A DNA stretch of 64,000 nt from Bdellovibrionales bacterium (lineage in GTDB: Bacteria > Bdellovibrionota > Bdellovibrionia > Bdellovibrionales > UBA1609). The stretch covers positions 1,504,001 through 1,568,000 of the forward strand of contig OZ241456.1 of the NCBI GenBank assembly GCA_965200875.1, read 5' to 3'. The notes under the pieces are model-generated. The model saw only the letters and a program-made list of their open reading frames with translations, did no database searches and was not told the DNA's origin. This document shows, one piece after another, positions 22,156-40,491 of this stretch. The stretch's first letter is position 1, and each line of letters starts with the position of its first letter. A program made the translations under genes and the position numbers.

Positions 22156-22872
22156 CTATAAAAATTTTTTGGGCATTTCATCCCAAGTTTTCCCATTGAG
22201 CAATCGACCAGTTGTGCTTTTTCGAACACCGCCCCATTGTTTAAAAAAGAAAGCAACATTTTTTTTAAGGCACTGATCGCGGATTTGTTCCACCCACTCT
22301 TTCTGCATTACACGAGCTTTTGGCCCGGATTCCCCTCCAACAATAACCCAATCAATGCCTTTAAGCTTGAGTCGGGGAAGTGGACCTAAAAGTGGTTCTA
22401 AGGATAAAAATTTTACATGAGCTGTTGTTTTCAGCAAGTGATTTGTTCGAAACATATAATTTTTATTTTCAATGCTTGTCCCTATCCATATATTTTTAGT
22501 CCAGTTAAGCTTTGGGGCAATCTGCTCCAGTCGCTCAGCACGTTTTGTTAAAACTTGAAAAATATGTTGAGGAGAACAATTCATCACCTGAAAAACTTTT
22601 TTTATAAAAAAATCAGGAACTCGCGCATGAAATAAATCGCTCATTGAGTTGACGAATATCATTTTTGGTTTCACCCATTTAAGAGGAATGTCAAGAGCTG
22701 ATTCATGCAAAGTAAGTTTAAAACCATTTCTGTAGTTTCGCTGACCCATTTTTTGTAACCTATGAGATAATCTTTCAGCATAGCAATTTTTACAACCAGG
22801 ACTAACTTTATTGCAACCGGTAAGAGGGTTCCATGTAGCATCTGTCCATTCTATACTTGATAATGTTGCCAT
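22156..22872 (-). CDS. DUF5131 / phage Gp37-Gp68 family (three-Cys, radical-SAM-like)
   Basis: [53 protein letters not shown]. Confidence 0.93.
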
Positions 22873-22874
22873 AT

Positions 22875-23708
22875 TTACTCCTGCTCCAAAACATGTTGCG
22901 AAATCCTTAGAGCTATATTTTTTCCTTTTGGATTACTGACAGCAAAATATAAGTAAAATAAAATACTGTTCCTAGAATTTTTTAAAGGCAGAGGCTCAGA
23001 AGCTACACCAGGGAATACTGTTTTTAGATGCTCTAAATAGTATTTTTTGATATCCTCAAACTTGGCGGTTTTTTCTTTTTCTGTTTTTTTAGTAAATAAA
23101 GAAAGTTGTTGTTTTTCTTGATAAAAGGCTTCCTTCCATTGAGAAGATCCAAGTGTTTTATTCAACTTTTTACATAATTTTTCTGGGATTTGTCCATCTC
23201 TGTAAAGCAATCTATTAACAGCCATTGCAGGGAATAAAATCCATAAATCTATAGCGTGAGTTTGTGATATGGCTTTAATGACATCCCATTCAACTTCCAT
23301 AGCAAAGGGATCAAGGAATAGGACAGCTCTGTGATTTATCCAATCCATTGTTTTGCAAAGTTCCTTTATGCAAATATTTGCATCTTCATTATGAAATATC
23401 AATTTTTTTGTTGGAAACTTGTCTTTTATTTGTTGAAGCTGTTGAAATATGTTTGGATCTTTTTCAATAAATATATATTTATCAAATCTCTGTGTATGTT
23501 CCAAAATAATGAGAGGAGAACCTTTTTGAAATTTTCTAATATGGCCCTCATCTTCACCGGCATTTTCATCTCTATAACCTGAACCGGCAAAAGCATCAAT
23601 GTACAAAAGTTTGAATTTTTGATTTTGCATCACCTTCTCATAAGCAAGAACATATTGTTTAAGAGAATCTAATTTTTTCTCTGTCCAATTTCCGCCAAAT
23701 TTATTCAT
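22875..23708 (-). CDS. tcmP: Three-Cys-motif partner protein TcmP (SAM-dependent methyltransferase fold)
   Basis: [27 protein letters not shown]; directly upstream of DUF5131. Confidence 0.88.
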
Positions 23709-23786
23709 TTTTCCTCTATATTCTTGTTTGTAATAAAATCGCTATTCTGTGAATCTAAAAGTAGAGAGTTTGTTTCAATTTTTTAT

Positions 23787-23903
23787 TCATGATTTTATCC
23801 ATACTATAATTAAGTTGTATTTTTTAAAATCTGGCAGATCATCTGACGCTTGATAATTATCAAAAACTCCAAAATTTTTTATTTTCTTAATTTTTGTAAT
23901 CAT
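23787..23903 (-). pseudogene. N-terminal remnant of an AAA_13/RloC-type ATPase
   Basis: Manual translation MITKIKKIKNFGVFDNYQASDDLPDFKKYNLI..., cut just before the expected YGxNxSGKT P-loop. Confidence 0.5.
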
Positions 23904-23969
23904 TTTTCCTGTAAAAACTCCAAATGTTTTATTTTTGATACTCAAAGGTAAAAAAAGACCAAAAATATA

Positions 23970-25590
23970 CTACACAATTTTTTGATAGCTTTCAAGATGA
24001 GATAAGGACTTTGAGAGTTGAAGCTCTAAAGCCTTTTCCTTTTGTATTTGTTTTTCAGCATTTTCTATAACCTTCATAAGAGCAACAATCTCTTTTTGCA
24101 CCTCCAGAGGAGGAAATGGTATTTTGATTGCTTTTATTGATTTCTGATTGATTGAATCAAAGACTGAACCTCCACCTCCTGTAATTTTACTTTGACTTTT
24201 CTTTAAATAATAAAACAAGAACATTTGATTGATTTTGTTGTTCTTTACTCTGATAGAAGCTAGTCCTCTTCCAATACAAATTTTTTGAAGTGTAATATTC
24301 ACGGGGCCCACGGGAGCACGAACAGACATTAAAATATCATTCGGTTTTGCTGTTTTTGTAACACTTACTGTCCATTTCACAGGCTCTCCCAAATATATGT
24401 CTCCAAACTCTTTTTTCCCTTGATAAAAAGGAGTACCTTGATTGTGTGTATTATAAAATCGGCCTTTTGGAGACTGACCAGAAATAATCTGTGCAATATC
24501 TCCTAATTCCACCATAGGCCATATACTGTCTGGTTGTTCTGCAAAAGCAATGTCCTCTTTTTTGAGATAAGCTTTTTGTTCCTTCACCAGAGCTTGTAAA
24601 GATTTTTTAATCCGGCCATTAGAGAGTTTCTGAAAATCTAAACTTCCGCAAAGCATCAGCTGAAACAGCAGGGATTTAAAATTTTTTACACCATTTTCTG
24701 AATACAAAATGTCCTTAAAATTATCTTTCAGCCTCTTCCAGTTATGAACTAACTCCGATTTGGTTTTGGATTGAGTGATGAAATACATGGAAGACTTAGA
24801 AAACTCATCTTGCTTTTGAGATTTTTCCTTTGTTTGAATTTCCAACAAGGTGCACTTTTTCATAAGAGCGACAATCTCTTTTTGCACCTCCAGAGGAGGA
24901 AGTGGTATTTTATATTTCATAGCATAGTCTTTTGTGAGTCTTTGTAGTCCTCCTGTTCCACTCATATTCTCTTTTCCATTATTAATAAATGTATTACTGG
25001 AAATGAAGTAATAGAGTATTTCAGAAAGAATGATTTTTTTATTAACTCTATACACAAAAAATTCACTTGAACCAAAGCCAATCCCATTCTTTAAACTTCT
25101 AGCAATTCCAGATTTTCCATTTTCAAAACAAGGTGTCACACGAGCAAGTAAAACATCTCCTTCTGCAAAGTATGTGTATCCTGAATATACATTTTTTAAC
25201 TTTTTTTCATTTTTTATTCTAAAGTTTATATTATGAGCATTCAAATCTGCCATTGGAACAAAGGATATAAACTGATTTTTTGGTAATTTTTTTACTTCAG
25301 ACTTTTTAGGACTAAATTCACAAATATCTCCTAATTCCACCATAGGCCATATACTGTCTGGTTGTTCTGCAAAAGCAATGTGCTCTTTTTTGAGATAAGC
25401 TTTTTGTTCCTTCACCAGAGCTTGTAAAGATTTTTTAATCCGGCCATTAGAGAGTTTTTGAAAGTCCAAACTTCCATTAATAGCTAATTGAAAAATCAAA
25501 GACTTAAAACATTTAAAGCTTTTTTCTGACTTAGAGAAAATATCAAAATTTCTGAATAAAATATTATTATTTGATTTTAGATCTGTTTTC
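23970..25590 (-). CDS. hsdS: Type I RM specificity subunit HsdS (copy 2) with duplicated conserved regions
   Basis: WPMVELGDI x2, PPLEVQKEIV x2, two TRDs (TPCFENGK; SGQSP/SVRAPVG). Start probably ATG 25590 (track gives 25655). Confidence 0.88.
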
Positions 25591-25599
25591 ATTTTTTCT

Positions 25600-26001
25600 T
25601 TAATTTTTGTGTTTAAAAAGACCTTCAATAATAGCGCGAACGATTGCAAAAACACTTACAGTTGTGCTTCCGATCAGAGTAACCAGAGCCCATTTATCAA
25701 GCTGAAATCCAAAACACTGAAAGCCACTGCATACCAAGATAAAAAGAACAATACCCGACCATATACACATATACCAAAACATTTTCCTAGCATAGTTTTC
25801 TCTTAAATTTCTGTTGCTTTCTCGATCCTTTATTTCCTCTCTTGCAAGCTCTGCTTTTTGCTCATCTTGCAAATCTTTTTCTGGAACTTTATATTCTTCT
25901 TGTATATCCTTGGATATATCTTTTAATATTTTAAGTAGTGAATTTGTTGCTGATTTTAAATCTTCTTTTATCGGCTGGTTTATATTATTTTTGTTGTTCA
26001 T
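25600..26001 (-). CDS. Small two-TM protein, candidate Panacea-neutralised toxin
   Basis: Charged N-terminus plus two hydrophobic helices; downstream of the DUF4065 gene on the same strand. Confidence 0.55.
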   Translation of the reverse strand: MNNKNNINQPIKEDLKSATNSLLKILKDISKDIQEEYKVPEKDLQDEQKAELAREEIKDRESNRNLRENYARKMFWYMCIWSGIVLFILVCSGFQCFGFQLDKWALVTLIGSTTVSVFAIVRAIIEGLFKHKN

Positions 26002-26158
26002 TTTTATTTATTGTTCAAGGGTTATTCCAATTAGTCACCGGTGAAAAAGTATGTAATTTTTCTGGATCCTAATTTCTCGCTGGACTGAAAAGCAAACAGC
26101 TTTAGTTTTCAGTTTCCAAGAGGGAACTTTCACCTAAACAGACAAGTAACTCACATAA

Positions 26159-26665
26159 TCAAAGTTGTTTCACACTTGACTGCTTATTTTTTGTAAGACC
26201 TTTATAATATTTTTTGATTTCATCGTTACTTATGGAAAAACCTCTTATATGTTTTCCAGCTTCCCAAGCTTTATACCAAGGAGCATCCTCAGCATGGGTA
26301 ATAGCTGATAACTCCCAACCATCTAGATTTCCAAACTCTTTGTGAGTAAAATCCATAATGATTTTTTCGTCCTCATCAAAATGGGAGCTGACATCCTCTA
26401 AAGTATTGTTTACCATATTTGCTTTTTGAGCTTTATTTTTAATTAGCCCCGGTTTTTCATATTTAAACTCGTGATATATACTTGGGAAAACAGGACCGAA
26501 CTTCCATGCTTCCGCATATTCATCTGCCAAAGGCTTATCAAGTAGAGCCAAAGTAAAACCATGAGAAATATAAGACAATTTAAGAAGTTGCATTAAAGTT
26601 AATCCATTATCACTTAAACCTATAAAATAATTTGCAATAGCTATAGGATTATGCCCTATTGACAT
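26159..26665 (-). CDS. Panacea (DUF4065/SocA/GepA) antitoxin
   Basis: IANYFI, LTLMQLLKLSY, EAWKFGPV, LSAITH...PW. Confidence 0.9.
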   Translation of the reverse strand: MSIGHNPIAIANYFIGLSDNGLTLMQLLKLSYISHGFTLALLDKPLADEYAEAWKFGPVFPSIYHEFKYEKPGLIKNKAQKANMVNNTLEDVSSHFDEDEKIIMDFTHKEFGNLDGWELSAITHAEDAPWYKAWEAGKHIRGFSISNDEIKKYYKGLTKNKQSSVKQL

Positions 26666-26872
26666 TTTATAATCTCCTTAACTGACTTTTTTTGACTTGA
26701 CATGACTTTATTTTCCTTTATTTACGACTGAGAATCAAGGCATAAAACTGTGTTCCTCTATAAAACATCTTAAAAAAGGGACAAAATAGCGTTGTTTGCT
26801 CAAAAAACCTGAAATTTCAAGTGTGACCAGTATAAATATAAAAGCACAGTAACTGTTCAACTGTTTTTCCCA

Positions 26873-28312
26873 TCAAAGAAAAGCCTTTTCTATTTTTTGT
26901 TTTATTTCATCCAATAACTTCTTGTTTTTCTTCTTTAAAGACAAATATTCTTTCTCAAGAACCATCGGATCAGCATATTCTTCTTTATCAGTATGAGGAT
27001 TTTTTATATCTAAATTGTAATGATTCTTTTTTACCTCTTCTATGGAAACCTGCCATGAATACTTGTTTGCCTTTCTGTATTGAAACCACTCTTTAACTGG
27101 TTCAAACTCCTGACGCTGAATAGGGTTGCCCTTTGTATATTGCTTTAAACCTTGAGGTAAAGGAAGTTCATAATACCATACTTTTTTTGTCATTGAACCT
27201 TTTTTGAAAAACAAAAGATTTGTAGGAATGGAAGAATAAGGATTAAACACCCCTTTAGGCAATCTAACCATTGTATGAAGATTGCAGGTCTCTAAAAGCT
27301 CTTGTCTAATTCTTGCTGTCACTCCGGTTTGAAATAAACTTCCATTTGGTAAAACAACACCTGCTCTTCCGCCTTCTTTTAGCAAATTTACAATCAGTAT
27401 AAGAAACAAATCTGCTGTCTCGCTGGTTTGAAAACTTTGTGGAAAATTAGCTTTAACCCCTTCCTCTTCACTTCCACCAAAAGGAGGATTTGTTAAAATT
27501 ACATCCACTTTGTCCTTGGCTTTGTATTCTGTCATTATTTTTTTTAATTTGTTCCCTCTGACAATTTGAGTGGGATTTTCTATGCCATGTAACAACATAT
27601 TTGTCACACAAAGAAGATGCGGGAGAGGTTTTTTTTCCACTCCATAGATTTGCTTTTGAAGCTTTTTTCTGTCCTTTACTGTATGCACATCATTTTTTCT
27701 GAGATATTGGACAGCACAGGATAAAAAACCTCCTGTCCCGCAAGCCGGATCCAAAACTTTTTCTCCTAACTGAGGGCCAATCACTTCTGTCATAAACTGG
27801 GTGACAGGTCTTGGTGTATAAAACTCTCCTGCATTTCCAGCACCTTGTAAATCCTTTAAAAAGTTCTCATAAATATCTCCGAAGATATGCAAATCCTCTG
27901 TTTTATTAAAATCAACTTCATTCACTTTGTTAATAACTTGCCTTAGAAGTGTGCCATTTTTCATATAATTATTTGAATCCTGAAAAACCTCTTTAACCAT
28001 AATTCCTCTTGGATTTGTCTGAATATTTACAGACAAGTTTTTGAAGTGCGGAAACAAGTCATTATTGATAAATTTTAATAAATCATTTCCTGTAATACCT
28101 TCAGGGTTGCTTGCCCAATTTTTCCATAAGTATTTCTTAGGGATAGAAGGAGTATGATTTCTTTTTAAAGTTTCACTTTCAAGCTCTTTATCACTGAATA
28201 TCTTTAAGAAAAAAATCCAGCCCAGCTGTTCAATTCTCTGAGCATCTCCACTGACACCTGCATCTTGTCTCATAATGTTTTGTATGGATTTTACAAGATT
28301 TTGAAGAGACAT
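26873..28312 (-). CDS. hsdM: Type I RM methyltransferase HsdM
   Basis: GEFYTPRPV, DPACGTGGFL, NPPF, VRLPKGVF. Confidence 0.96.
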   Translation of the reverse strand: MSLQNLVKSIQNIMRQDAGVSGDAQRIEQLGWIFFLKIFSDKELESETLKRNHTPSIPKKYLWKNWASNPEGITGNDLLKFINNDLFPHFKNLSVNIQTNPRGIMVKEVFQDSNNYMKNGTLLRQVINKVNEVDFNKTEDLHIFGDIYENFLKDLQGAGNAGEFYTPRPVTQFMTEVIGPQLGEKVLDPACGTGGFLSCAVQYLRKNDVHTVKDRKKLQKQIYGVEKKPLPHLLCVTNMLLHGIENPTQIVRGNKLKKIMTEYKAKDKVDVILTNPPFGGSEEEGVKANFPQSFQTSETADLFLILIVNLLKEGGRAGVVLPNGSLFQTGVTARIRQELLETCNLHTMVRLPKGVFNPYSSIPTNLLFFKKGSMTKKVWYYELPLPQGLKQYTKGNPIQRQEFEPVKEWFQYRKANKYSWQVSIEEVKKNHYNLDIKNPHTDKEEYADPMVLEKEYLSLKKKNKKLLDEIKQKIEKAFL

Positions 28313-28321
28313 TTCATATCC

Positions 28322-30619
28322 TTAATAAAGCTCACCCAGTATTTGTTTTATAGCTTTTATATAGTTTTCTTTGCCATTAAATTTGTTGATTATTTCCACC
28401 GGAGTGCCAAATTTTGCCATAGAGGGAGTTCTTAAAGTATCCAAGTTCTCCAAGCTATCCACTCCATTATAAGCATATTTTTTCAACAGCTCATTTATTA
28501 TTTGCTGACAATCTACCTCTAAAAAAGAGAAGGCAGAAGAGTTTTTAGCTTTCTCCACTCTTTGCTCTTTCGTCAAAAATTCTTTTCCGAAAACAAAATA
28601 ATTTATCAAATCAAACACATCTATATTGTGATGATTTTTTTGTTTTAAAGGCTCCGTCAATAAACCTTCTTCCTGTAATTCATCTATAATTTCCTTTTTA
28701 TTATTTGATTCCTTCCAATGAGTTACAAAATTGTCTAAAGTTGCGTATTTTTTACAGACAACTTTCTTTGTATAATCTATAAAAGATTCAGTGATAAGAT
28801 TTCCATCAGCCCCTATATATTTAACCTCTTCACCTATAATTTCAACCTGCTGATTTTTTACATAATATTTTCTTCTTGGTGTAACATCATCAGGATCTTC
28901 TATTTGTTTATCATGGATTTCATCTTCTGGATGAACCACAACAGATTCCCCTAGTGCGAGTTCATGGATTTCTACTGGTTCTCCGTCAAAATCAGGATCA
29001 TTGAAAAGCCTTGTTGCCCCTTTAAAATCCATAATGGTAAAAAACATTTTGTCAAAATCCTCTTCAACACGAGTTCCCCGTCCAATAATCTGTTTAAATT
29101 CTGACATGGAGTTAATTATTTTATCCAATACAATCAATTTACAGGTTCTTGCATCTACACCTGTTGTCAAAAGTTTTGAAGTTGTCACTATAACCGGATA
29201 CCTTTTTTCAGGATTAATAAAATTTTCAATTTCATTTTTTCCTATTTCGTCATCACCCGTTATCTTCATAATGTATTTATCGCTTTCTTTAACTTTTTCG
29301 GAATTTTGGTTGATGAGCTGTTGCCTCATTCTTTCAGCATGGTCTATATCCTCACAAAATATAATTGTTTTTTGAAAAGGATCTGTTTGCTCTAAAAACT
29401 CTGTGACCCTTTGAGCAACAAGCTCTGTTCTTTTTTCAAGGACAAGGCTTTTATCCATATCTTTTTGTTTAAACTCTCTACTTTCAATAAGCTGGCCATA
29501 TTTATCCCTCTGACCTTGTTTTGGTCTCCAGCCGTAAATGTCTTTATCTATATCAATTCTAATGACTTTATAGGGAGCTAGGAAGCCGTCTTCAATTCCC
29601 TGCTTTAAAGAATAAGTATAAACAGGATCACCAAAATAATGAATGTTGGACACATACCTAGTTTCTTTTGGAGTTGCTGTTAAACCGATTTGAGTTGCAG
29701 AGCTAAAATATTCCAAAATCTCACGCCAAGAGGAATCCTCTTTAGCACTCCCTCTATGACATTCATCAATCACAATTAAATCAAAAAAATCCTTAGAGAA
29801 TTTTCTAAAAATTTTCTTGTTCTCTTGCTCTCCTGTAATTGCCTGATACAAAGACAAAAAAACCTCGTATGCCGGATCTGCTACTCTTCCTTTGATTTTT
29901 GTCATTACCTGTCCAAAAGGAGCAAAATCATTGTTTCGACTTTGGTCAACCAAGATATTTCTATCCGCTAAAAACAAAATGCGTTTTTTCTTTTTAGCTT
30001 TCCATAATTTCCACATAATTTGAAAAGCCGTGTAGGTTTTTCCTGTCCCTGTTGCCATAACCAAAAGAAGTCTGTTTTGACCTTGAGATATAGCTTCAAC
30101 AGATCTGTTAATGGCAATTCTCTGATAATATCTTGGCTCTTTTGCTTCCACCCCACTATGATAAGGTTCTAAAATGATTTTTTCCTGCTCCTCACTGATA
30201 TTTTTATGCTCTTTATAAATTGACCACAGATATTCAGGGGAGGGAAAATCTTTTAGTTTCAATTCTGTTTCTTTTCCAGAGATTTTATCATGGAATAAAA
30301 AACCATCGCCATTTGAGGAAAAAGCAAAGGGAATGTCTAAAATGTCTGCATACCCTAAAGCCTGTTGTATCCCTGAAGATATAGAGTGATTGTTGTCCTT
30401 TGCTTCAATAACTGCAATTTGCCTGTCATTTTTATAAAGAATATAGTCCGCCTTTTTGCCCTTCAGTCTCTTGGTGTTTTGCCCTTGGACTTGTATTCTT
30501 CCGTCCGTAAAATAAAGCTCTTCTCTCATTTGAGAAATTTTATCCCAGCCTGCCTGTTCTATTGCAGGGGTAATATATTTTGTGCAAATATCCCGCTCTG
30601 TCAGATCTTTTTTATTCAT
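28322..30619 (-). CDS. hsdR: Type I RM restriction subunit HsdR (EcoAI-like)
   Basis: ADY...VIEAK, MATGTGKT, DECHRGSA, LTATP, QIIGRGTR; intact 765 aa. Confidence 0.96.
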   Translation of the reverse strand: MNKKDLTERDICTKYITPAIEQAGWDKISQMREELYFTDGRIQVQGQNTKRLKGKKADYILYKNDRQIAVIEAKDNNHSISSGIQQALGYADILDIPFAFSSNGDGFLFHDKISGKETELKLKDFPSPEYLWSIYKEHKNISEEQEKIILEPYHSGVEAKEPRYYQRIAINRSVEAISQGQNRLLLVMATGTGKTYTAFQIMWKLWKAKKKKRILFLADRNILVDQSRNNDFAPFGQVMTKIKGRVADPAYEVFLSLYQAITGEQENKKIFRKFSKDFFDLIVIDECHRGSAKEDSSWREILEYFSSATQIGLTATPKETRYVSNIHYFGDPVYTYSLKQGIEDGFLAPYKVIRIDIDKDIYGWRPKQGQRDKYGQLIESREFKQKDMDKSLVLEKRTELVAQRVTEFLEQTDPFQKTIIFCEDIDHAERMRQQLINQNSEKVKESDKYIMKITGDDEIGKNEIENFINPEKRYPVIVTTSKLLTTGVDARTCKLIVLDKIINSMSEFKQIIGRGTRVEEDFDKMFFTIMDFKGATRLFNDPDFDGEPVEIHELALGESVVVHPEDEIHDKQIEDPDDVTPRRKYYVKNQQVEIIGEEVKYIGADGNLITESFIDYTKKVVCKKYATLDNFVTHWKESNNKKEIIDELQEEGLLTEPLKQKNHHNIDVFDLINYFVFGKEFLTKEQRVEKAKNSSAFSFLEVDCQQIINELLKKYAYNGVDSLENLDTLRTPSMAKFGTPVEIINKFNGKENYIKAIKQILGELY

Positions 30620-30723: not shown

Positions 30724-31251
30724 ATGACCAAAAAAATCATTCATGGACAGCATTCATCCTCTAAAAAAGTAAAAAACTGGCTGGAATGGCTTAAAAAATG
30801 GAGGATGACTTCCTTAAAGTTCTCTGCTCCGTATTTGGAAATGGAATGGCAACCAATGGAGACAGATAAAGACGCCGCTTGGGAGCTTTATATCGAATTG
30901 CTGACCAGAATAACCACTCAACCATTGCCAATTCATCATGGAGATGAAAAAACTGCTCTTGATAGTGTGTATTCCATTTTCAGTTTAACACGAACAATTA
31001 TCAAATCACATAAAAATTGTATTGAATTTACAAAAATAGCTATTGTTGTTCTTAATCAAATTGTTAGGCCATTTACAGCAAAGTGGCATAAAATTTCTAT
31101 TGAGAAAGGATTTGAAAATTCAAATACCTGTAACACATTTCGTAAAGAGCTTTTACAACTTCAAAAGCAACTTTGTATTTATACCAAAATGCTGGCCGAT
31201 ATGGCCGGAGTGGAAGACTTGACAAATCTTGAAAATAAAACTTGTTACTAA
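30724..31251 (+). CDS. Uncharacterised helical protein co-transcribed with the TIR gene
   Basis: 175-aa ORF (AAWELYIELLTRITTQ...RPFTAKWH); ends 17 bp before the TIR gene. Confidence 0.7.
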   Translation: MTKKIIHGQHSSSKKVKNWLEWLKKWRMTSLKFSAPYLEMEWQPMETDKDAAWELYIELLTRITTQPLPIHHGDEKTALDSVYSIFSLTRTIIKSHKNCIEFTKIAIVVLNQIVRPFTAKWHKISIEKGFENSNTCNTFRKELLQLQKQLCIYTKMLADMAGVEDLTNLENKTCY

Positions 31252-31268
31252 ACAAATAGGAGGAACTT

Positions 31269-31934
31269 ATGCACAAAGTATTTATCAGCTATCATCATGA
31301 AAATGATCAAGATTATAAAAATGAGATTTTGAGATTGAATAATAATTATAAATCGCAATATGGTGATCCTATATTTATTGATAAGTCTGTAGATACAGAA
31401 GACATATCAGAGGACTTGTCTGATGAAGACATTAGACAAAAAATTAGAGACGATTACTTACAAGATTCCACAGTGACAATCCTTCTTGTAGGCACTGAAA
31501 CAAAAAATCGCAAACATGTTGACTGGGAGTTATATTCCAGTATGTATAACGGGAAAAGAAATAAACAATCAGGGATTTTGGTTGTTAACTTGCCAACAAT
31601 TAAAAATTACTCCTCTATTACAGCAGGACATGAAGAACAAAATATTTACCCAGAAATTACATCGTGGACTTCTGTCACGACACGAACAGCATACGAAAAG
31701 AGGTATCCTTGTATGCCTGAGAGAATAATTGATAACTTAATTCATGCTGGAGCAAAAATATCTATTACCCACTGGGATAAGATTACTGATCCAAAAAGAT
31801 TAAAATACCTTATTGATGTTACATTTGCAGATAGAACTCATTGCGATTATGATTTAAAAAGACCAATGAGACGAAAAAATCTCAATCAACCTTTTTCTGA
31901 TATTAGATCTTCTCTATTTCAAAATCACCCATAA
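31269..31934 (+). CDS. TIR domain protein (ThsB/DUF1863-like)
   Basis: KVFISYHH, IRDDYLQDSTVTILLVG, catalytic Glu in VDWEL. Confidence 0.88.
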   Translation: MHKVFISYHHENDQDYKNEILRLNNNYKSQYGDPIFIDKSVDTEDISEDLSDEDIRQKIRDDYLQDSTVTILLVGTETKNRKHVDWELYSSMYNGKRNKQSGILVVNLPTIKNYSSITAGHEEQNIYPEITSWTSVTTRTAYEKRYPCMPERIIDNLIHAGAKISITHWDKITDPKRLKYLIDVTFADRTHCDYDLKRPMRRKNLNQPFSDIRSSLFQNHP

Positions 31935-32050: not shown

Positions 32051-32225
32051 CCGACTTCGACACAACCCGATGAGTAAAAAAAATATTTTGGTGTTTTTTT
32101 TATCCTTCTCTGTTCTCTAAGAGAGACTTACTCGATACAGAAGGCTTTGGAAGATAGAAGAGGCTTTTCGTGTGTGCAAACACAACCTCAAGATGAGACC
32201 CATTTACCATTGGAAAAAGAATATA
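32051..32225 (+). mobile_element. IS1634-family transposase scar
   Basis: Frame reading RYRRLWKIEEAFRVCKHNLKMRPIYHWKK (~32132-32220), the C-terminal DDE motif typical of IS1634; possible terminal repeat ccgacttcgacac at 32051. Confidence 0.65.
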
Positions 32226-32324
32226 TTTCGGGCTAGCGATTTAAGGGAACAAGATCAACATACAAGTCAACTTGTTACTACGGAAGTGTTAAAACCCTTT
32301 GAGACTAAAAAAACTCTTATAAGA

Positions 32325-33204: not shown

Positions 33205-33302
33205 CTAGTACCCTAATTCAATTCCCTCAGTATCCTGAAAAAATAGTATTTTTTAACTATTTTTAAATTGATTTTGGATAAAAAACGGCGTAAAATGGCC
33301 AC

Positions 33303-36300
33303 ATGATATATAAAAAACGAATTATTAAATTACCAGAAAACAGCCATACTTTTCTGTTTGGTGTACGGGGAAGTGGAAAAACCGCACTTTTAAATAAGAG
33401 ATTCCCATCTCAACAGTCGCTACATATTGATCTATTGGATGAATCTCTTTATCAAAGCTACCTTTCCAATGTAGCGCAGTTTTATGAAACAATAAGTGCT
33501 TTTGAAAAAGGTGGTGTGATTATTGTGGATGAAATCCAAAAAATGCCTGAGCTTTTAAATGAGGTACATCGCCTTATTGAAGAATCTTCCAGAGGGGAAG
33601 CCCCTGCACGCCAGTTTATTTTAACAGGTTCTAGTGCACGAAAGCTCAAAGCACCAGGGGTAAACTTATTGGCAGGAAGGGCTGGTAAAACGGCACTTCA
33701 TCCTTTTGTTCCAGAAGAGTTGGGCGAAGACTTTAACTTAAACAGTGCTTTAAAATATGGTCTCTTACCTATTGTGTGGTCTCATCACGATAAAGAATTA
33801 AAATTAAAATCTTATGCTGAAGAATATTTGAAAGAGGAAATTCAGGCCACAGCTTTAGTGAAAAATTTACCAGGCTTTGCACGATTTTTAGAAGTGGCTG
33901 GCCTTTATCATGGCCAAGCTATAAATATGAGTGCTATTTCAAGGGAGTGTCAAACTCCTAAAAAAGCCGTACAAAACTATTTTTCCATATTGGAAGATAC
34001 CCTCTTGGGCTTTTTCCTGCCTGCTTACACTCCCCGGTTACAGCTGAGAGAGAGAAAACACAAAAAGTTTTATTTTATTGATCCAGGATTGGCCCGCACT
34101 GTAAGAAAAGACTTTGGACCTGTATCCCATGCAGAAAAAGGCTCCCTTTTTGAAGGGCTGATAGCTCAAATTTTACGAGCTTATAGGGATTATCATTCTC
34201 TCTTTGAAGAGATGTATTATTGGTCTCCGGTGGATTCCCAAAAAACAGAAGTGGATTTTCTGTTAAGAAAGAGGGAGGATTTAATAGCCATTGAAGTCAA
34301 AGCTCGTACCCAAGTTTCTTCTTCAGAATGCAAAGGTCTTAAAGCTATTCAAAAATTGCCGGCGGTTAAAAAAAGAATTTTGGTTTATATGGGAGACACC
34401 ATAAGAAGATCAGAAGATGGTATTGATATATGGCCATTTGATTTTTTTTGCCAAAATCTTCAGGAAGGAAATTTTAATGCGCCAGTTGTTTATACAAAAA
34501 AAAGTAAAAAAAAACCTGAGCTTGGTTTAGCTATACCTTCAAGTAATAACATTTTCACTCCACGAGAACTACAGATTCCCCCTCCAGCAGATGAAACAAA
34601 GTTTGAACAACTGTGCCTTGATTTATACAAACAAGAGTTTGGAGAACCCACTCAACTACATAGTAGCAAGGGCCAAAGCCAACAAGGAGTGGATATTTTC
34701 AGTCAATACGAAGAATCGGAGGGTAGTATAGGTATACAGTGCAAAAAAAGAGAGTACCCAACTGGGAAAATCACAGAACAAGAATTACAGGAAGAAGTGG
34801 AGAAAGCAAAAAGTTTCGAACCACCTTTGAAGAGATTTATTTTAGCCACAACTTGCAAAAGAGATGCCAATATTCAAAAGACTGCGCGTCTTCTTACAGA
34901 AAAGCATAGTAAAAACAATCTTTTTTCTGTGGAAATACACAGCTGGGATGAAATCAAAGAGCTTTTAAGTAAATACCCTAAAGTATATCAACAGTATTAT
35001 GGAACAACAACAGATAATATTGCTTTAAACAACCGGGAATATGCAAAAAAAACAACATCTACTCACTCTTTTAATTTAGACACAATAAAGGAGATAAAAA
35101 GCGAAAATCACCACGCAGAACTTAAAAGAATACAAAAATTACTTAATACAAACCCAAAGACAGCTCTTATTTCATTGGAGGATATTAAAACAAGAGAATG
35201 GGATAAATTAAACAATAAAGTAAAATACAAAGTTTTAATTTATATGGCTGACGCAAAAGCCAAAATGAAGGATAGAAACACAGCTTATGGTTTGATTATT
35301 CAGGCTTTGCAGTTCAATAAAGAGGATGAAGATGCCCGTATGAATTGTGCTTTTGCTTATTGGATGAAAAATAATATAGAAAAATCCAAAGAATATCTTA
35401 AAAAAACCAGAGAGCTCAACCCTCACAACATATCAGCCTGTAATTTGGAAATACAAATCCAATTTAAAGAAGGAAAAAGTATTAAAGAAATTGTGGCAAA
35501 ATTGCCTGAAGATATAAAAAATCAAGCGCAGATAGCTCAATTACTGGCTCATCTCAGTATAAATCAAAAAGATTATCAATCAGCAGAAAAATGGCTGAAG
35601 ATTTTTTATAATAACAGAGAGAAAAACGAAAGTGGGGGTTGGAAAGAAATAAAAGATGAGGCAATCTATGCAGATCTGTCTTTGAACTTGCTTTTGGCAA
35701 AGCCAAATGTTTTTTCAGGAAGACGAGTCCCGGAGAATTTAAAAGAAAAGCTTAATAATATTATAAAAAATTATAAAAAATTAATTACAGATAACCAGTT
35801 TAGCGAATTAAAAGAATTTAACCCAAATTGGTACTTACATTATGCCCTAGCCCTTGAATTAAGTGGAGATCTCGATAAAGCCATTCAGATTCTTCAAACA
35901 GGCATTGATGCCTTTCCAGAAGATGAATATCTAAAATTAGAGTTGAGTCGTCTATTTGAACAAACAGAAAATATAACAAAAAGTATTGAAATATTGGAAA
36001 AACAAATTGGGTTACATTCTTCATCTTCAACAAGTAATATCTCTGTTAAAACCGAAGATGCAAAGTTCGAGCAGTTACATTCTTTTCTTTCAAAAAAAAC
36101 TGATACAACCCAAGATAATATGTCGGAAAAACCTGTTACTTGGGCTTTAATATTAACTGACCTTTATTTTTACAATAATCAAAATGAAAAAGCCTTGGAA
36201 TTATTGAACCAAATAATAAAAAATCCTTCTATGGATCAAGAAGATAATTTGGAAGTGGAAAAATACCAAGTCTTTCAGTGGCTTCAGGCTGAAAACATAG

Positions 36301-38585
36301 AGGAGGCAGAAAAAACATTAAACTCTTTTTTTGAAAAAAACCAAGATGATGTATCCACTTTAATTTTAAAATCTAAATTGGCAAGGGCTAAAACAAAAGC
36401 CCTTGAAGGAAAAACAGAAGAATCCAAGGAGCAGGAAAATATAAGCATTCAATCTCTTAAAGAGGCTTATAAGGTGTTTCAAAATAAAAACTATAGTGAA
36501 GAAACAAACAGTCCTTATTTTGAAAACAGAGAGTGGTTAAGAGATATTCAGCAACTTGCTCAAGAGCTTGGTTTAGCTAAAATGTATAAAGAAGTTGAAC
36601 CTCTTTTGGAGAAAATCACAAATCAAAACCTCGATCACCCTGAGATTTTTAAATTGCTTCATGCTTACTTTGAAAATGGCAAAAACAGGAAGGCCATTAA
36701 ACTGGCAGAAGCTTTGCTTAAAAAATTCCCGGATAGAATAGAACCAGCCAATACCTTGTTTCTTATTTATGAAGACTTAGGGGATAGAGAAAAATCCATT
36801 CAATATTATGAAAATTTTATGCAACACAATCCTGATAACAGCCAGATGAAAATAGAACTGGCTTTGACTTATATAAGAAATGAACAATTAGATAAAGCTA
36901 AAGCTTTATTAAATTACACCTTTAACTTAAGTCAGTTATCTGTAAATGAGATATGCCGGCTCGCACTTGCTTATAACCACACTGACCATCTAAAAAAAGC
37001 TTTGGATATGTTATACCAAAGCCTTAAAAAGTATCCTTCCAATTATGACCTGCAACAATTTTATTCAGGTTTATTCTTTTTTAGAAAAGAAAAATTATTT
37101 TTAACTTCACCAAAAGAAGTCGAAGTGGATTGTTATGTAAAAATTCAAGAATTGAACACAAATGAAATAACAGAAATAATTATTGAAAAAACACCCGATG
37201 AAAAATCAGCAAATATATATACCCCTAATCACCCTTTTGTTCAAAAATTTTTGAGGAAGACCATCAACAGTGTAATTGATCATGCAAACAAACAATATAA
37301 AATTTTGAAAATAAAAAATAAATATATTCAAAAACTTCATGAAATCACTAATAATGCCGAAAAAAGATTCCCTGTAAAACCTTTTATCAAAACAGCTACA
37401 GTGCCAAAATTGGCTACAAAAGAAGATATAGCTCAAGCTCTTAAACAAGTGATTCCAGATACAAAGAAGCATAAAGAAAAAGCATTTCAGTATTATGCAG
37501 AGGGAAGAATGACTATTGGCTATCTGTCGAATATTATCGGCCTGCACCCTATTGAAACTATGGATTTTCTATGGCAATCTTTAGAGCACAAGTTTATATC
37601 TTCCCTTCCGGGTTTGGAAAATTATAAAACTTCACAGGAAATTCTTAATAAAAAAACAGATATTATTATAGATCTTACCTCTCTTTTTATACTGCATTCA
37701 ATAAAAATGGAAAAACATTTTGAAGATAGTCCTTTTAAACTTTATATATGTCCATCCACTATAGAGTCCGTAAAAGAACTAATACAAAAAATGCAACAAC
37801 ATTCTCAAGATGGATTACTTATGGGTGGTTTTGATACGCAGGGTAAATTGATCACTAACCATACTCCTCCAGAAATCATACAGAGAAATCTGAATTTTTT
37901 GGACAATATGCTAAAATGGGCTAAAGAGATTTGTGCCATTAAAACTGTACCAGTGGATTACATCCAGAGTCGCCAAGAAAAATCACATATTGAAAATATT
38001 ATCGGAAAAGAATTTTTAGACCCTTTACTATCATCTCATAATCAAAAAAACATCATTCTGTTATCTGAAGATGGAATGATAGACGCTTTATCCAAAAATG
38101 ACTTAAATATTTTCAGAGTGCGTTTATGGGATATAATACAGTTTTTTAAAAGTCAGTTAATTATAAATGATAGTCAAGCTTTGCAATTCAAAGCTAAACT
38201 GATTCAGCTAAATCAAACATATATTCCAGTGGATCATGAGCTATTGCTTGTTTTATTAAAACAAGCTGGCTATTCCCTTACTGACATTGGTTTTCAAAGA
38301 GGCTTATATTTTATGGGGCCTGTTTCCAATCTACCTGGAGTGATTGAGGTTTTATCCCAATTCCTTAAGGATTTGTTTCTAGAACCAGAACTTTTACTGT
38401 ATCATAAAGAGTTGATTACACAAGAAGTATTAAATAAAGCTTATATGGGAAGAAGAAATATCACACCTCTTGATATAGCCATAAAGCTTAAGCAATCGAC
38501 TCTGGCTAAAACCTTTTTACTGCCGTTTCAGCAAAAAGAGATAGAAAACAGTATTGATTATTGGCTAAAAAATAAAATATATTGA
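33303..38585 (+). CDS. Multidomain conflict protein: AAA_14 + DUF4143, restriction-endonuclease-like domain, TPRs, GreA/B-C-like region, PIN-like C-terminus
   Basis: GVRGSGKT/VDEIQK/LTGSSARKL/EVDF..IAIEVK (aa 1-~385); QIPPP..FEQLC..QQGVDI..IGIQCK (aa ~420-565); long TPR-like helices; IIIDLTSL...LLSED (aa ~1450-1590). Confidence 0.8.
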   Translation: MIYKKRIIKLPENSHTFLFGVRGSGKTALLNKRFPSQQSLHIDLLDESLYQSYLSNVAQFYETISAFEKGGVIIVDEIQKMPELLNEVHRLIEESSRGEAPARQFILTGSSARKLKAPGVNLLAGRAGKTALHPFVPEELGEDFNLNSALKYGLLPIVWSHHDKELKLKSYAEEYLKEEIQATALVKNLPGFARFLEVAGLYHGQAINMSAISRECQTPKKAVQNYFSILEDTLLGFFLPAYTPRLQLRERKHKKFYFIDPGLARTVRKDFGPVSHAEKGSLFEGLIAQILRAYRDYHSLFEEMYYWSPVDSQKTEVDFLLRKREDLIAIEVKARTQVSSSECKGLKAIQKLPAVKKRILVYMGDTIRRSEDGIDIWPFDFFCQNLQEGNFNAPVVYTKKSKKKPELGLAIPSSNNIFTPRELQIPPPADETKFEQLCLDLYKQEFGEPTQLHSSKGQSQQGVDIFSQYEESEGSIGIQCKKREYPTGKITEQELQEEVEKAKSFEPPLKRFILATTCKRDANIQKTARLLTEKHSKNNLFSVEIHSWDEIKELLSKYPKVYQQYYGTTTDNIALNNREYAKKTTSTHSFNLDTIKEIKSENHHAELKRIQKLLNTNPKTALISLEDIKTREWDKLNNKVKYKVLIYMADAKAKMKDRNTAYGLIIQALQFNKEDEDARMNCAFAYWMKNNIEKSKEYLKKTRELNPHNISACNLEIQIQFKEGKSIKEIVAKLPEDIKNQAQIAQLLAHLSINQKDYQSAEKWLKIFYNNREKNESGGWKEIKDEAIYADLSLNLLLAKPNVFSGRRVPENLKEKLNNIIKNYKKLITDNQFSELKEFNPNWYLHYALALELSGDLDKAIQILQTGIDAFPEDEYLKLELSRLFEQTENITKSIEILEKQIGLHSSSSTSNISVKTEDAKFEQLHSFLSKKTDTTQDNMSEKPVTWALILTDLYFYNNQNEKALELLNQIIKNPSMDQEDNLEVEKYQVFQWLQAENIEEAEKTLNSFFEKNQDDVSTLILKSKLARAKTKALEGKTEESKEQENISIQSLKEAYKVFQNKNYSEETNSPYFENREWLRDIQQLAQELGLAKMYKEVEPLLEKITNQNLDHPEIFKLLHAYFENGKNRKAIKLAEALLKKFPDRIEPANTLFLIYEDLGDREKSIQYYENFMQHNPDNSQMKIELALTYIRNEQLDKAKALLNYTFNLSQLSVNEICRLALAYNHTDHLKKALDMLYQSLKKYPSNYDLQQFYSGLFFFRKEKLFLTSPKEVEVDCYVKIQELNTNEITEIIIEKTPDEKSANIYTPNHPFVQKFLRKTINSVIDHANKQYKILKIKNKYIQKLHEITNNAEKRFPVKPFIKTATVPKLATKEDIAQALKQVIPDTKKHKEKAFQYYAEGRMTIGYLSNIIGLHPIETMDFLWQSLEHKFISSLPGLENYKTSQEILNKKTDIIIDLTSLFILHSIKMEKHFEDSPFKLYICPSTIESVKELIQKMQQHSQDGLLMGGFDTQGKLITNHTPPEIIQRNLNFLDNMLKWAKEICAIKTVPVDYIQSRQEKSHIENIIGKEFLDPLLSSHNQKNIILLSEDGMIDALSKNDLNIFRVRLWDIIQFFKSQLIINDSQALQFKAKLIQLNQTYIPVDHELLLVLLKQAGYSLTDIGFQRGLYFMGPVSNLPGVIEVLSQFLKDLFLEPELLLYHKELITQEVLNKAYMGRRNITPLDIAIKLKQSTLAKTFLLPFQQKEIENSIDYWLKNKIY

Positions 38586-38945: not shown

Positions 38946-39155
38946 AAAACACCTCTGATTGGAAAATATAAACTTTAAAGGAAGAGATTACCATAAAAAT
39001 CTATAAAATCAATAAGCTTTTACGGATTATTTTTTTTTCAAGGAGGCTAAGGATTTGACAACGCGTCCTATTTTGTATATTTTAAAACATATATGGCGAC
39101 TGGATGAATCAAAAAAGAAATTGAAAAAACCACAGTGAAAGAGGAGGGAAGAATT

Positions 39156-39338
39156 ATGATGCCATTATTACAATGTTCATATGATGAGGCCATAGAAAAA
39201 GGCATGCAAAAAGGCATAGAAAAAGGACGAAAAGAGCTGATTGCAAAATTACTTAAAAGTGGTGTGGATTTGCAGGTTCTTTGCAAAGGCACAGGGCTTT
39301 CCGAAGAAGAAATTAAAAAACTTAAAAAGGGCGACTAA
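39156..39338 (+). CDS. Stand-alone Rpn C-terminal (RpnS-like) protein, copy 2
   Basis: 60 aa MMPLLQCSYDEAIEKGMQKGIEKGRKELIAKLLKSG...TGLSEEEIKKL; same agggaagaattATGATG leader as 5205. Confidence 0.7.
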   Translation: MMPLLQCSYDEAIEKGMQKGIEKGRKELIAKLLKSGVDLQVLCKGTGLSEEEIKKLKKGD

Positions 39339-39477
39339 GAATGCAGATAGTTTTGGAATGTCAAAACAAACAGTGGGTACAATAATTTCTGTAGATTCTG
39401 TGGTAGCAGGAAGACTCCTTGGAGTATGTAAAATCTGTACATAAAAAATACAAAAACCGGATCAAAGAGGTGATAAA

Positions 39478-40491
39478 ATGGCACAAGCAGATTTGTTGGT
39501 GGAGCTGATAAAAAGTGCCAGTGATGGTGATCAAATTTCTTTCCGTAAAATTTCTGAAGCTTTGATCCAAGAAGAAAGAAACAAAGGCCATAGAATACTG
39601 GCAGATCGTTTAATCAAAGCGTTGCGACCTAAAAGTTCCACTAGTTCCCATACTTTCAAAAAAAATGAACATAATAATAATATCCATAAAAAATTTATTT
39701 CTGAAATAACACCGGAAAGAAATTTACACAGCTTGATTTTAACACAAAAAACTCATGATCAACTCAAAGAAGTAATTGAAGAGCAACATAGATCAGAATT
39801 ATTGCATTCACACAATCTGTCTCCAAGAAATCGTTTGTTATTTGCAGGCCCTCCCGGCAACGGTAAAACTACTTTGGCAGAAGCTTTGGCTCATGAGTTA
39901 ATGTATCCTTTGTTTGTTGTCAGATATGAAAACCTAGTTGGTAGTTATTTAGGCGAAACTTCCGGCAGGTTGAAACATCTTATGGATTATGCCAAAACCC
40001 AAAGATGCGTTCTGTTTTTTGATGAGTTTGAAACTCTTGGAAAAGAACGCGGGGACACACATGAAACCGGAGAGATCAAGCGGGTTGTAAGCTCTTTGCT
40101 TTTGCAGATTGACAGCGTGCCTGATTATGTTGTTGTAGTGACGGCAAGCAATCATCCTGAATTGCTGGATAAGGCAGTATGGCGTCGTTTCCAAGTAAGA
40201 ATTAAATTACCCACCCCCACACAAAAACAGCTGTCCCAGCTTATTCAGTCTGTCAGTCAGCGTTGTAAAATAGATTTTGGATACACGCCGGATACTTTGG
40301 CAAAATCCCTAGTGGGAACTAGTTTTTCTGAAGCAGAAGAGTTTTGTTTGGATATTGTGCGTTTTGCTGTGCTGAAAAGACAAACAAAAAACTTGAAGAC
40401 AGTTACTAAAAACAAGCTGGAACAATGGCGTAGTCGATTGAATCCTCCAAAGAACGATCAAAATTGCAGTGGAAAAAGCCACAAACCATAG
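39478..40491 (+). CDS. AAA+ ATPase of the type usually paired with an S8 protease (IetA-like)
   Basis: GPPGNGKT, SYLGET, FFDEFETLGKER..ETGEIKRVV, ASNHPELLD.AVWRRF. Confidence 0.8.
   Translation: MAQADLLVELIKSASDGDQISFRKISEALIQEERNKGHRILADRLIKALRPKSSTSSHTFKKNEHNNNIHKKFISEITPERNLHSLILTQKTHDQLKEVIEEQHRSELLHSHNLSPRNRLLFAGPPGNGKTTLAEALAHELMYPLFVVRYENLVGSYLGETSGRLKHLMDYAKTQRCVLFFDEFETLGKERGDTHETGEIKRVVSSLLLQIDSVPDYVVVVTASNHPELLDKAVWRRFQVRIKLPTPTQKQLSQLIQSVSQRCKIDFGYTPDTLAKSLVGTSFSEAEEFCLDIVRFAVLKRQTKNLKTVTKNKLEQWRSRLNPPKNDQNCSGKSHKP

Follow-up and report, generated by a model that had tools for sequence, protein, structure and literature searches.

The TPR-GreA/B-C-PIN proteins form a predicted family of conflict systems which, according to Kaur et al. 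(2021, PMC8195603), are mostly stand-alone and are predicted to engage RNA polymerase and to cleave through the PIN domain, with an N-terminal effector as back-up. Their survey lists 13 variable N-terminal effectors, the REase among them, and its table includes one row with a NACHT gene upstream of an REase member. We found no experimental test of this predicted mechanism in print. AAA_14-DUF4143 proteins (COG1373/PDC-S01), in turn, are common proteins to which no function has been assigned: DUF4143 is placed among the PD-(D/E)XK families, with the function of DUF4143/COG1373 given as unknown, in PMC3424549, and the PDC systems are candidates awaiting tests, according to bioRxiv 2024.01.29.577857. 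The only phage test that we found was negative, with a PDC-S01 representative challenged with T4, T5 and T7 falling outside the four positives in bioRxiv 2024.09.26.614923. A DUF4143-related REase has been named as the effector of another predicted system (bioRxiv 2026.10.19.760177).

Here, we analyzed a 64,000-nucleotide stretch (the window) of a Bdellovibrionales genome of 1.87 Mb in 2 contigs, in which a single ORF of 1760 aa (P0001) joins representatives of these two families (Table 1). As originally predicted, the ORF is uninterrupted, with no internal stops in its translation, and the stretch at ~residues 393-423, previously noted as a Met-free Lys/Pro-rich linker, lacks in-frame ATG, GTG and TTG codons alike when read from the sequence. 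A contig of run X1, assembled by Logan rather than taken as raw reads and possibly derived from the sample that gave rise to the assembly itself, extends over 33575-35663 at depth 26, crossing the linker without a single difference. Run X4, which belongs to another study and is labelled sponge metagenome, contributed a contig that extends over 34412-35043 and whose sole listed indel is an in-frame 9-nt insertion, the frame being judged from the listed indels. The contig crossing the linker, together with the other full-length fusions described below, largely rules out an artefact or frameshift at this position.

Table 1. Features of the fusion gene and its upstream region; positions refer to the window.
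Feature	Position	Strand	Evidence and remarks
Sigma70-like promoter, TTGATT-17-TAAAAT	33268..33296	+	Ends 6 nt before ATG; 9/12 match
Whole ORF P0001, 1760 aa	33303..38585	+	ORF; contig across linker
AAA_14 ATPase	33345..33719	+	Pfam, model; Walker A GVRGSGKT, Walker B VDEIQ, LTGSS, LLAGRA
DUF4143: winged helix and PD-(D/E)xK nuclease (EVDF...IEVK)	33834..34466	+	Pfam, PADLOC, motifs
Flexible Lys/Pro-rich linker	34479..34571	+	Alignment with unfused ATPase tails; low pLDDT
Mrr-like PD-(D/E)xK nuclease (E435, D464, Q479, K481)	34572..35012	+	Mrr_cat, fold match
TPR solenoid, ~660 aa, boundaries approximate	35100..37088	+	Pfam
GreA/B C-terminal (FKBP-like) domain	37098..37322	+	Foldseek, structure comparison, PF01272 in relatives
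PIN RNase-like domain (D1457, E1488, D1573, E1589-D1590)	37665..38093	+	PF20698, PIN folds, conservation
Family-conserved C-terminal helical bundle	38211..38582	+	AlphaFold model; 78% identity to P0002, dN/dS 0.19

Residues 1-390 constitute an intact AAA_14-DUF4143 (PDC-S01-like) module, consisting of an ATPase, a winged helix-turn-helix (wHTH) and a nuclease. As in other COG1373/PDC-S01 proteins, AAA_14 (residues 15-139) is followed by DUF4143 (residues 178-334), both above the Pfam cut-offs, the PADLOC profile PDC-S01 is matched with E 2.4e-45 (PADLOC cut-offs not displayed) and the motif set is full; however, such proteins are normally encoded by a single gene of ~390 aa, whereas this one is fused to, or in relatives paired with, a 1300-aa partner. 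The best structural matches to residues 1-270 are the archaeal proteins SSO1545 (2fna, Z 14.9) and Paby2304 (2qen, Z 14.6), at an rmsd of 3.3, although the sequence identity is 18% and the C-terminal nuclease is left unmatched. The same segment matches the NB-ARC module of an NLR (9qlv) with Z 13.8, and the comparison to an Avs5 structure gave Z 10.4. No sequence relatives of the ATPase module were found in the PDB, and a search of the ESM Atlas with the ATPase returned only ordinary AAA_14-DUF4143 clusters. The genome encodes 8 AAA_14-DUF4143 genes, that is, 7 paralogues of the head of the fusion.

In Avs proteins, the domain order is effector-STAND-TPR, with the TPRs as sensor repeats, the NTPase is an obligatory core, and oligomerization upon ligand binding activates the effector. 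The fusion resembles Avs and NLR-like STAND proteins in combining an ATPase of apparently STAND-like fold, a TPR array and an Mrr-like nuclease in one chain, but the ATPase stands at the N-terminus with a nuclease of its own and can be separated from the rest, and the TPRs are flanked by the effector on one side and GreA/B-C-PIN on the other. The resulting order, ATPase-nuclease-nuclease-TPR-GreA/B-C-PIN, does not match effector-STAND-sensor, and no Avs model matched the protein in the PADLOC scan. The whole protein does not appear to be an Avs.

The remaining domains were delineated with profiles and with AlphaFold models of residues 1-575 and 1200-1760 (pLDDT 90 each), in which linker residues 401-416 fall below a pLDDT of 50. 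When residues 421-575 were cut out alone, Mrr_cat was recovered with 26.4 bits against a cut-off of 21, and residues 430-567 adopt the AF1548 fold in the model of residues 1-575 (Z 12.1). Several TPR families of Pfam match at ~677-1204, and PIN-TPR-GreABC (PF20698) matches at 1455-1597 with 61.9 bits against a cut-off of 27.8; in the model, ~residues 1450-1630 match PIN folds with Z 8-9.6. The GreA/B-C domain has no Pfam match in the query itself; it is recognizable from the modelled residues 1266-1340, which match the C-domains of GreA, Gfh1 and GreB (Z 10.6, rmsd 1.9, 72 aligned residues), from GreA and Gfh1 as the best Foldseek matches of the region (E 0.002-0.03), and from PF01272 matches just below the cut-off in the relatives P0041 and P0012. 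Pfam, Mrr_cat on the excised region and the fold matches bear out the originally proposed domain list, domain parsing confirming the parts covered by the two models, and the three nuclease domains that this list contained (DUF4143, Mrr-like REase and PIN) all appear intact as judged by their motifs.

As had been proposed, residues 424-1760 make up a member of the predicted REase+TPR+GreA/B-C+PIN family: PF20698 is above its cut-off, and the core is 44% identical, over 1363 columns, to P0042 (GDA46_00495), which is listed as REase+TPR+GreAB-C+PIN and without a neighbour (Kaur et al. 2021, PMC8195603). The domain order is that of the family, with intact motifs, an N-terminal REase effector, a long and fast-evolving TPR region, GreA/B-C between the TPRs and PIN, and the PF20698 PIN near the C-terminus. 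What distinguishes the query from the published REase version is the additional N-terminal ATPase-wHTH-nuclease. The original prediction did not recognize this architecture, and the searchable part of the published architectures agrees, in that none of 12 label strings describing an ATPase fusion matched an entry of the table (PMC8195603). Although P0042 was published without a neighbour, an ATPase gene precedes the core at its locus (L080). Neither the fusion nor the pair was found in a literature search that stopped short of most subscription papers and of bioRxiv supplements (Payne et al. PDC tables); the available parts of PMC13092281 and bioRxiv 2026.04.11.717937 contain nothing on either.

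The fusion is not unique. Among 64 homologues of 968-3080 aa, the named ones being Bdellovibrionales MAGs, there are 10 full-length (long) fusions, the query and 9 others, along with 50 proteins without the ATPase, 3 short fusions that lack the REase and the first TPRs, and 1 protein that starts inside DUF4143. Searching with the ATPase for longer proteins yielded 16 matches, namely 13 fusions to the core and 3 chimeric-looking proteins (P0065-P0067), which we set aside as probable chimeras. Conversely, when the C-terminal 561 aa were used to retrieve 150 cluster representatives, of which 105 are at least 1100 aa long, the ATPase turned out to be present only in P0011, a member of the same clade.

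A strong core match was detected in 13 of the 108 genomes of the family, distributed over 3 genera, with weak TPR-only matches in 3 more. The 14 loci in those genomes comprise 3 long fusions, 10 cores with an AAA_14-DUF4143 gene directly upstream and 1 without it (L033); the unfused upstream genes are on the same strand and range from overlapping the core to 191 nt from it. With the query and an additional short fusion at L038 included (14 genomes), the ATPase lies directly 5' of 15/16 core genes (5 fused, 10 adjacent), and other neighbours are common to at most 3/16 loci, which suggests that the pair moves as a unit. Because the carriers are kin and not independent, these counts describe one lineage and not 16 trials. 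The two halves constitute a gene pair peculiar to this lineage. The originally inferred ATPase switch for the chain, and the importance of the single-chain form, are not supported: only 5/16 core genes are fused and 10/16 have a separate upstream ATPase. The published tendency of the family to stand alone fails within the clade (15/16 linked) but holds outside of it, where the ATPase is beside the core in none of the 20 loci for which 2.4 kb or more of upstream sequence was available (Poribacteria, cyanobacteria, Chloroflexi, an archaeon, another Bdellovibrionales MAG and others; 4 further loci were left out as too short or too weak). Partial searches, namely the ATPase search, the C-terminal representatives and these loci, revealed no fusion outside the clade.

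The distances of the two halves correlate across 24 pairs (Spearman rho 0.81, with 0 of 2000 permutations as high), and the nearest neighbour is the same for both halves in only 13 of the 24. Coupling is facultative, since the ATPase also stands alone: among 34 copies at 59% identity or higher, 15 are linked to the core, 18 are solo (including one that ends 72 nt from a contig end) and the remaining one lies before a truncated REase. A complex prediction for residues 1-560 of P0032 (of 1329, hence the N-terminal part only) with the upstream ATPase of L031 gave a score of 0.00, which we count neither for nor against binding.

Several variants of the architecture were encountered in the course of these searches. 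In P0074 (1420 aa), an in-clade core follows another kind of N-terminal nuclease-like domain, which amounts to an effector swap, and the Poribacteria TPR-GreA/B-C-PIN proteins of L063-L076 (1300-1470 aa) have an unassigned N-terminal domain of ~200 aa. Besides its two-gene unit, L038 (7041-12382 and 15396-19457) encodes an extra, 1353-aa short fusion, which is located 3 kb away on the opposite strand and belongs to a different sub-lineage.

On the C-terminal tree, the fused label switches 10 times, and 9 or more of these switches are forced; the ATPase tree requires 5 or more and shows 8. Recombination between the halves can inflate these numbers. A single origin, with the 10 long fusions forming one clade, was rejected on the C-terminal tree by an AU test that left out P0049, P0050, P0062 and P0063 (p 3e-5; P0061 and P0064 are absent from the tree set). 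A fused group of five members (P0001, P0002, P0003, P0005 and P0006) is recovered in both trees, with a support of 99 in the C-terminal tree and weak support in the ATPase tree, and the fused clade of the query stays fused down to ~52% identity in both.

The junctions vary among the fusions. The fusion linker is homologous to the first half of a tail found on the unfused partner ATPases, and this part of the tail joins the REase start directly, the stop codon, spacer and start codon being gone; the linkers are poorly conserved (7-65% identity between fusions). In 4 short fusions, with varied break points, the ATPase sits in the place of the REase. The tail, of 40-60 aa, is present on 9/11 paired ATPase genes, and its end motif, compared at the sequence level (pN 0.33 vs pS 0.66), is mildly constrained; the tails of L029 and L032 look frameshifted, and two basal paired ATPases are tail-less. 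Several solo ATPases end near residue 390, before the tail, and those of L046 and L048 retain an untranslated tail remnant after the stop, which suggests that they derive from paired ancestors. Because each half is encoded by a gene of its own in distant relatives, the fused state would be read more simply as the outcome of repeated in-frame deletions in an ancestral operon; the change could also have run from fusion to fission, or involved recombination.

The Walker A, Walker B and DUF4143 EVDF motifs are present in 14/14 fused ATPase domains checked, and REase residues E435, D464, Q479 and K481 in 11/11 long fusions and 48/50 unfused proteins. The PIN acidic residues are kept, except for D1573N in P0010 and D1457G in the short fusion P0039; P0050 is truncated. 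With P0002 as the reference and a simple counting method, dN/dS is 0.07 for the ATPase, 0.09 for DUF4143, 0.22 for the REase, 0.35-0.46 for the TPRs, 0.61 for GreA/B-C and 0.37 for PIN, so that the values below 1 show purifying selection at the sequence level in every domain. The least conserved part comprises the TPRs and GreA/B-C (46-53% identity to P0002), against ~90% for the ATPase half.

Upstream of the ATPase gene lies a candidate promoter (Table 1), of a type whose matches are overall no more frequent in the region than in shuffled sequence. A -35-like word (TTGAY/TTGCT) occurs 33-38 nt before the ATG in 21/27 homologous ATPase genes vs 57/1084 long ORFs of the genome, and a Shine-Dalgarno-like word in 1/27, so the transcript is probably leaderless. 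A weak inverted repeat around the -35 box and promoter scores only slightly above shuffles (8.1 vs 7.1 of 10), and autoregulation by the winged helix at this promoter (33245-33302) is possible.

The gene resides in a defence-rich window. Upstream, at 22156-30619, are a PDC-M41 pair (TcmP and DUF5131) as well as a type I RM locus in which hsdM is separated from hsdS by a gene for a Panacea antitoxin and a small membrane gene. A 175-aa unannotated ORF directly precedes a ThsB-like TIR gene (30724-31934), with no ThsA recognized, and the two could possibly make up a two-gene TIR system. A transposase-like fragment (32100-32300) lies upstream of the fusion. Downstream, a short repeat (39040-39350) with more than 15 genome copies presumably resembles the C-terminal end of Rpn-type nucleases, and an ietA-like ATPase (39478-40491; PADLOC E 4.6e-145) has no adjacent subtilase, Peptidase_S8 matches being located elsewhere in the genome. 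A tailed sister ATPase, 64% identical, is encoded in the same genome (L001:7570-14614; G000:C1 ~493.6-500.6 kb), before an REase start cut at 102 aa, behind which come an SIR2_2 protein of 1365 aa and an AbiTii-like gene; at L037, a related SIR2 protein is convergent to the fusion.

The reading that we tentatively prefer, at somewhat less than even confidence, is that an ATP-gated DNase has been added as an N-terminal effector to a defence core predicted to act on RNA polymerase, yielding a two-layer defence protein born of a lineage-specific two-gene unit. Following the prediction of Kaur et al., GreA/B-C would dock on RNA polymerase transcribing invader DNA, PIN would cut the transcript, the TPRs would sense invader proteins or keep the enzyme inactive, and the N-terminal slot would hold a swappable back-up effector. 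AAA_14-DUF4143 may then be an ATP-gated DNase placed before the Mrr-like REase, or in its stead as in the 4 short fusions, and might be delivered to, and released at, the infection-engaged complex. The fusion would fix this tether without being required for it, since separate neighbouring genes seem to achieve the same. The pairing in 15/16 loci, co-divergence, repeated fusion, the short fusions, the P0074 swap, the tail, the intact motifs and the dN/dS values all point in this direction, as do the fusion to this core of 13/16 long ATPase proteins, the DUF4143-related effector elsewhere and the defence neighbours. Counting against it are the occurrence of each half alone, the lack of the ATPase in L033, its presence in 0/20 out-of-clade loci and 1/150 representatives, the frameshifted tails and tail-less basal pairs, and the non-protective PDC-S01 representative (bioRxiv 2024.09.26.614923); furthermore, co-divergence is also expected from plain physical linkage. 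Nor is the one-way linkage unambiguous, because a promoter on the ATPase gene could explain it alone. This promoter, conserved in 21/27 genes, supports a different account, which we regard as a serious possibility although well short of even: the core landed behind an ATPase gene and merely borrows its promoter, each module being useful alone, and the fusions are tolerated in-frame deletions. Such independence would fit the solo ATPases, which are intact and often beside other defence-type genes (AAA_13, GmrSD, DUF4209 or IrrE-like/TIR, for example), as well as linkers that differ, are poorly conserved and disordered, and fusion as a minority state. It fits less well with the retention in 15/16 loci of the whole intact ATPase gene, beyond its promoter, with the persistence of fusion in the query clade down to ~52% identity, with the loss of the tail in solo copies and with the lack, among the 16 long matches, of any fusion of this ATPase subfamily to other defence proteins.

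An NLR/Avs-like switch of one or two chains, along the lines originally inferred, in which sensing by the TPRs would lead to ATP-dependent oligomerization that activates two DNases and PIN, or in which the ATPase restrains them until infection, seems distinctly unlikely. In its favour, archaeal STAND-like ATPases and NLR NB-ARC modules are the nearest matches to the ATPase-wHTH fold, no other part of the protein is as conserved as the ATPase, contact between the halves is suggested by their repeated fusion and by the retained tail, and an NTPase, TPRs and an Mrr-like nuclease together recall Avs. However, the domain order is unlike that of Avs, about half of the ATPase copies are solo, and the core occurs without such an ATPase in many phyla and once in the clade (L033), from which it follows that the core needs no switch. 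A variant of this idea, which we hold to be unlikely as well if slightly less so, would have a separable STAND-like switch grafted onto an RNA-polymerase-surveying core, that is, a reversed-order NLR-like receptor that responds to hijacked transcription by assembling two DNases and an RNase in an ATP-driven manner, with the protein caught flipping between two-gene and one-gene forms. That the fusion is relaxed or decaying, or reflects an error of assembly, and now serves no function is very improbable: the genomes of the carrier genera are small (1.3-2.5 Mb), the sister copy in the same genome is broken within the REase and the short fusion P0039 has lost a PIN aspartate, but the contig across the linker, the 10 long fusions, the intact motifs and dN/dS below 1 in all domains stand against it.

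As regards the original suggestion of a candidate new anti-phage system, the fusion is indeed recurrent, but unfused pairs are common, the ATPase is often solo and the core lacks it outside the clade, all of which indicates a lineage-specific variant and gene pair of a known predicted system rather than a new one.

To conclude, the repeated fusion of AAA_14-DUF4143 proteins to a conserved partner provides a Rosetta-stone lead, which suggests that COG1373 proteins should be studied with a partner, or in a transcription-linked context, rather than alone. Should the halves prove independent, nothing more would remain than an elegant example of recurrent fusion in bacteria with small genomes. Given the narrow range, the finding is mainly useful as an experimental handle on two families. 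The family also offers ready-made constructs (the long fusion, the short one lacking the REase, the two-gene operon, the solo ATPase and the solo core) with which the predicted TPR-GreA/B-C-PIN mechanism could be put to experiment for the first time. If the switch reading is true, the widespread COG1373 family would be plug-in partners of defence proteins.
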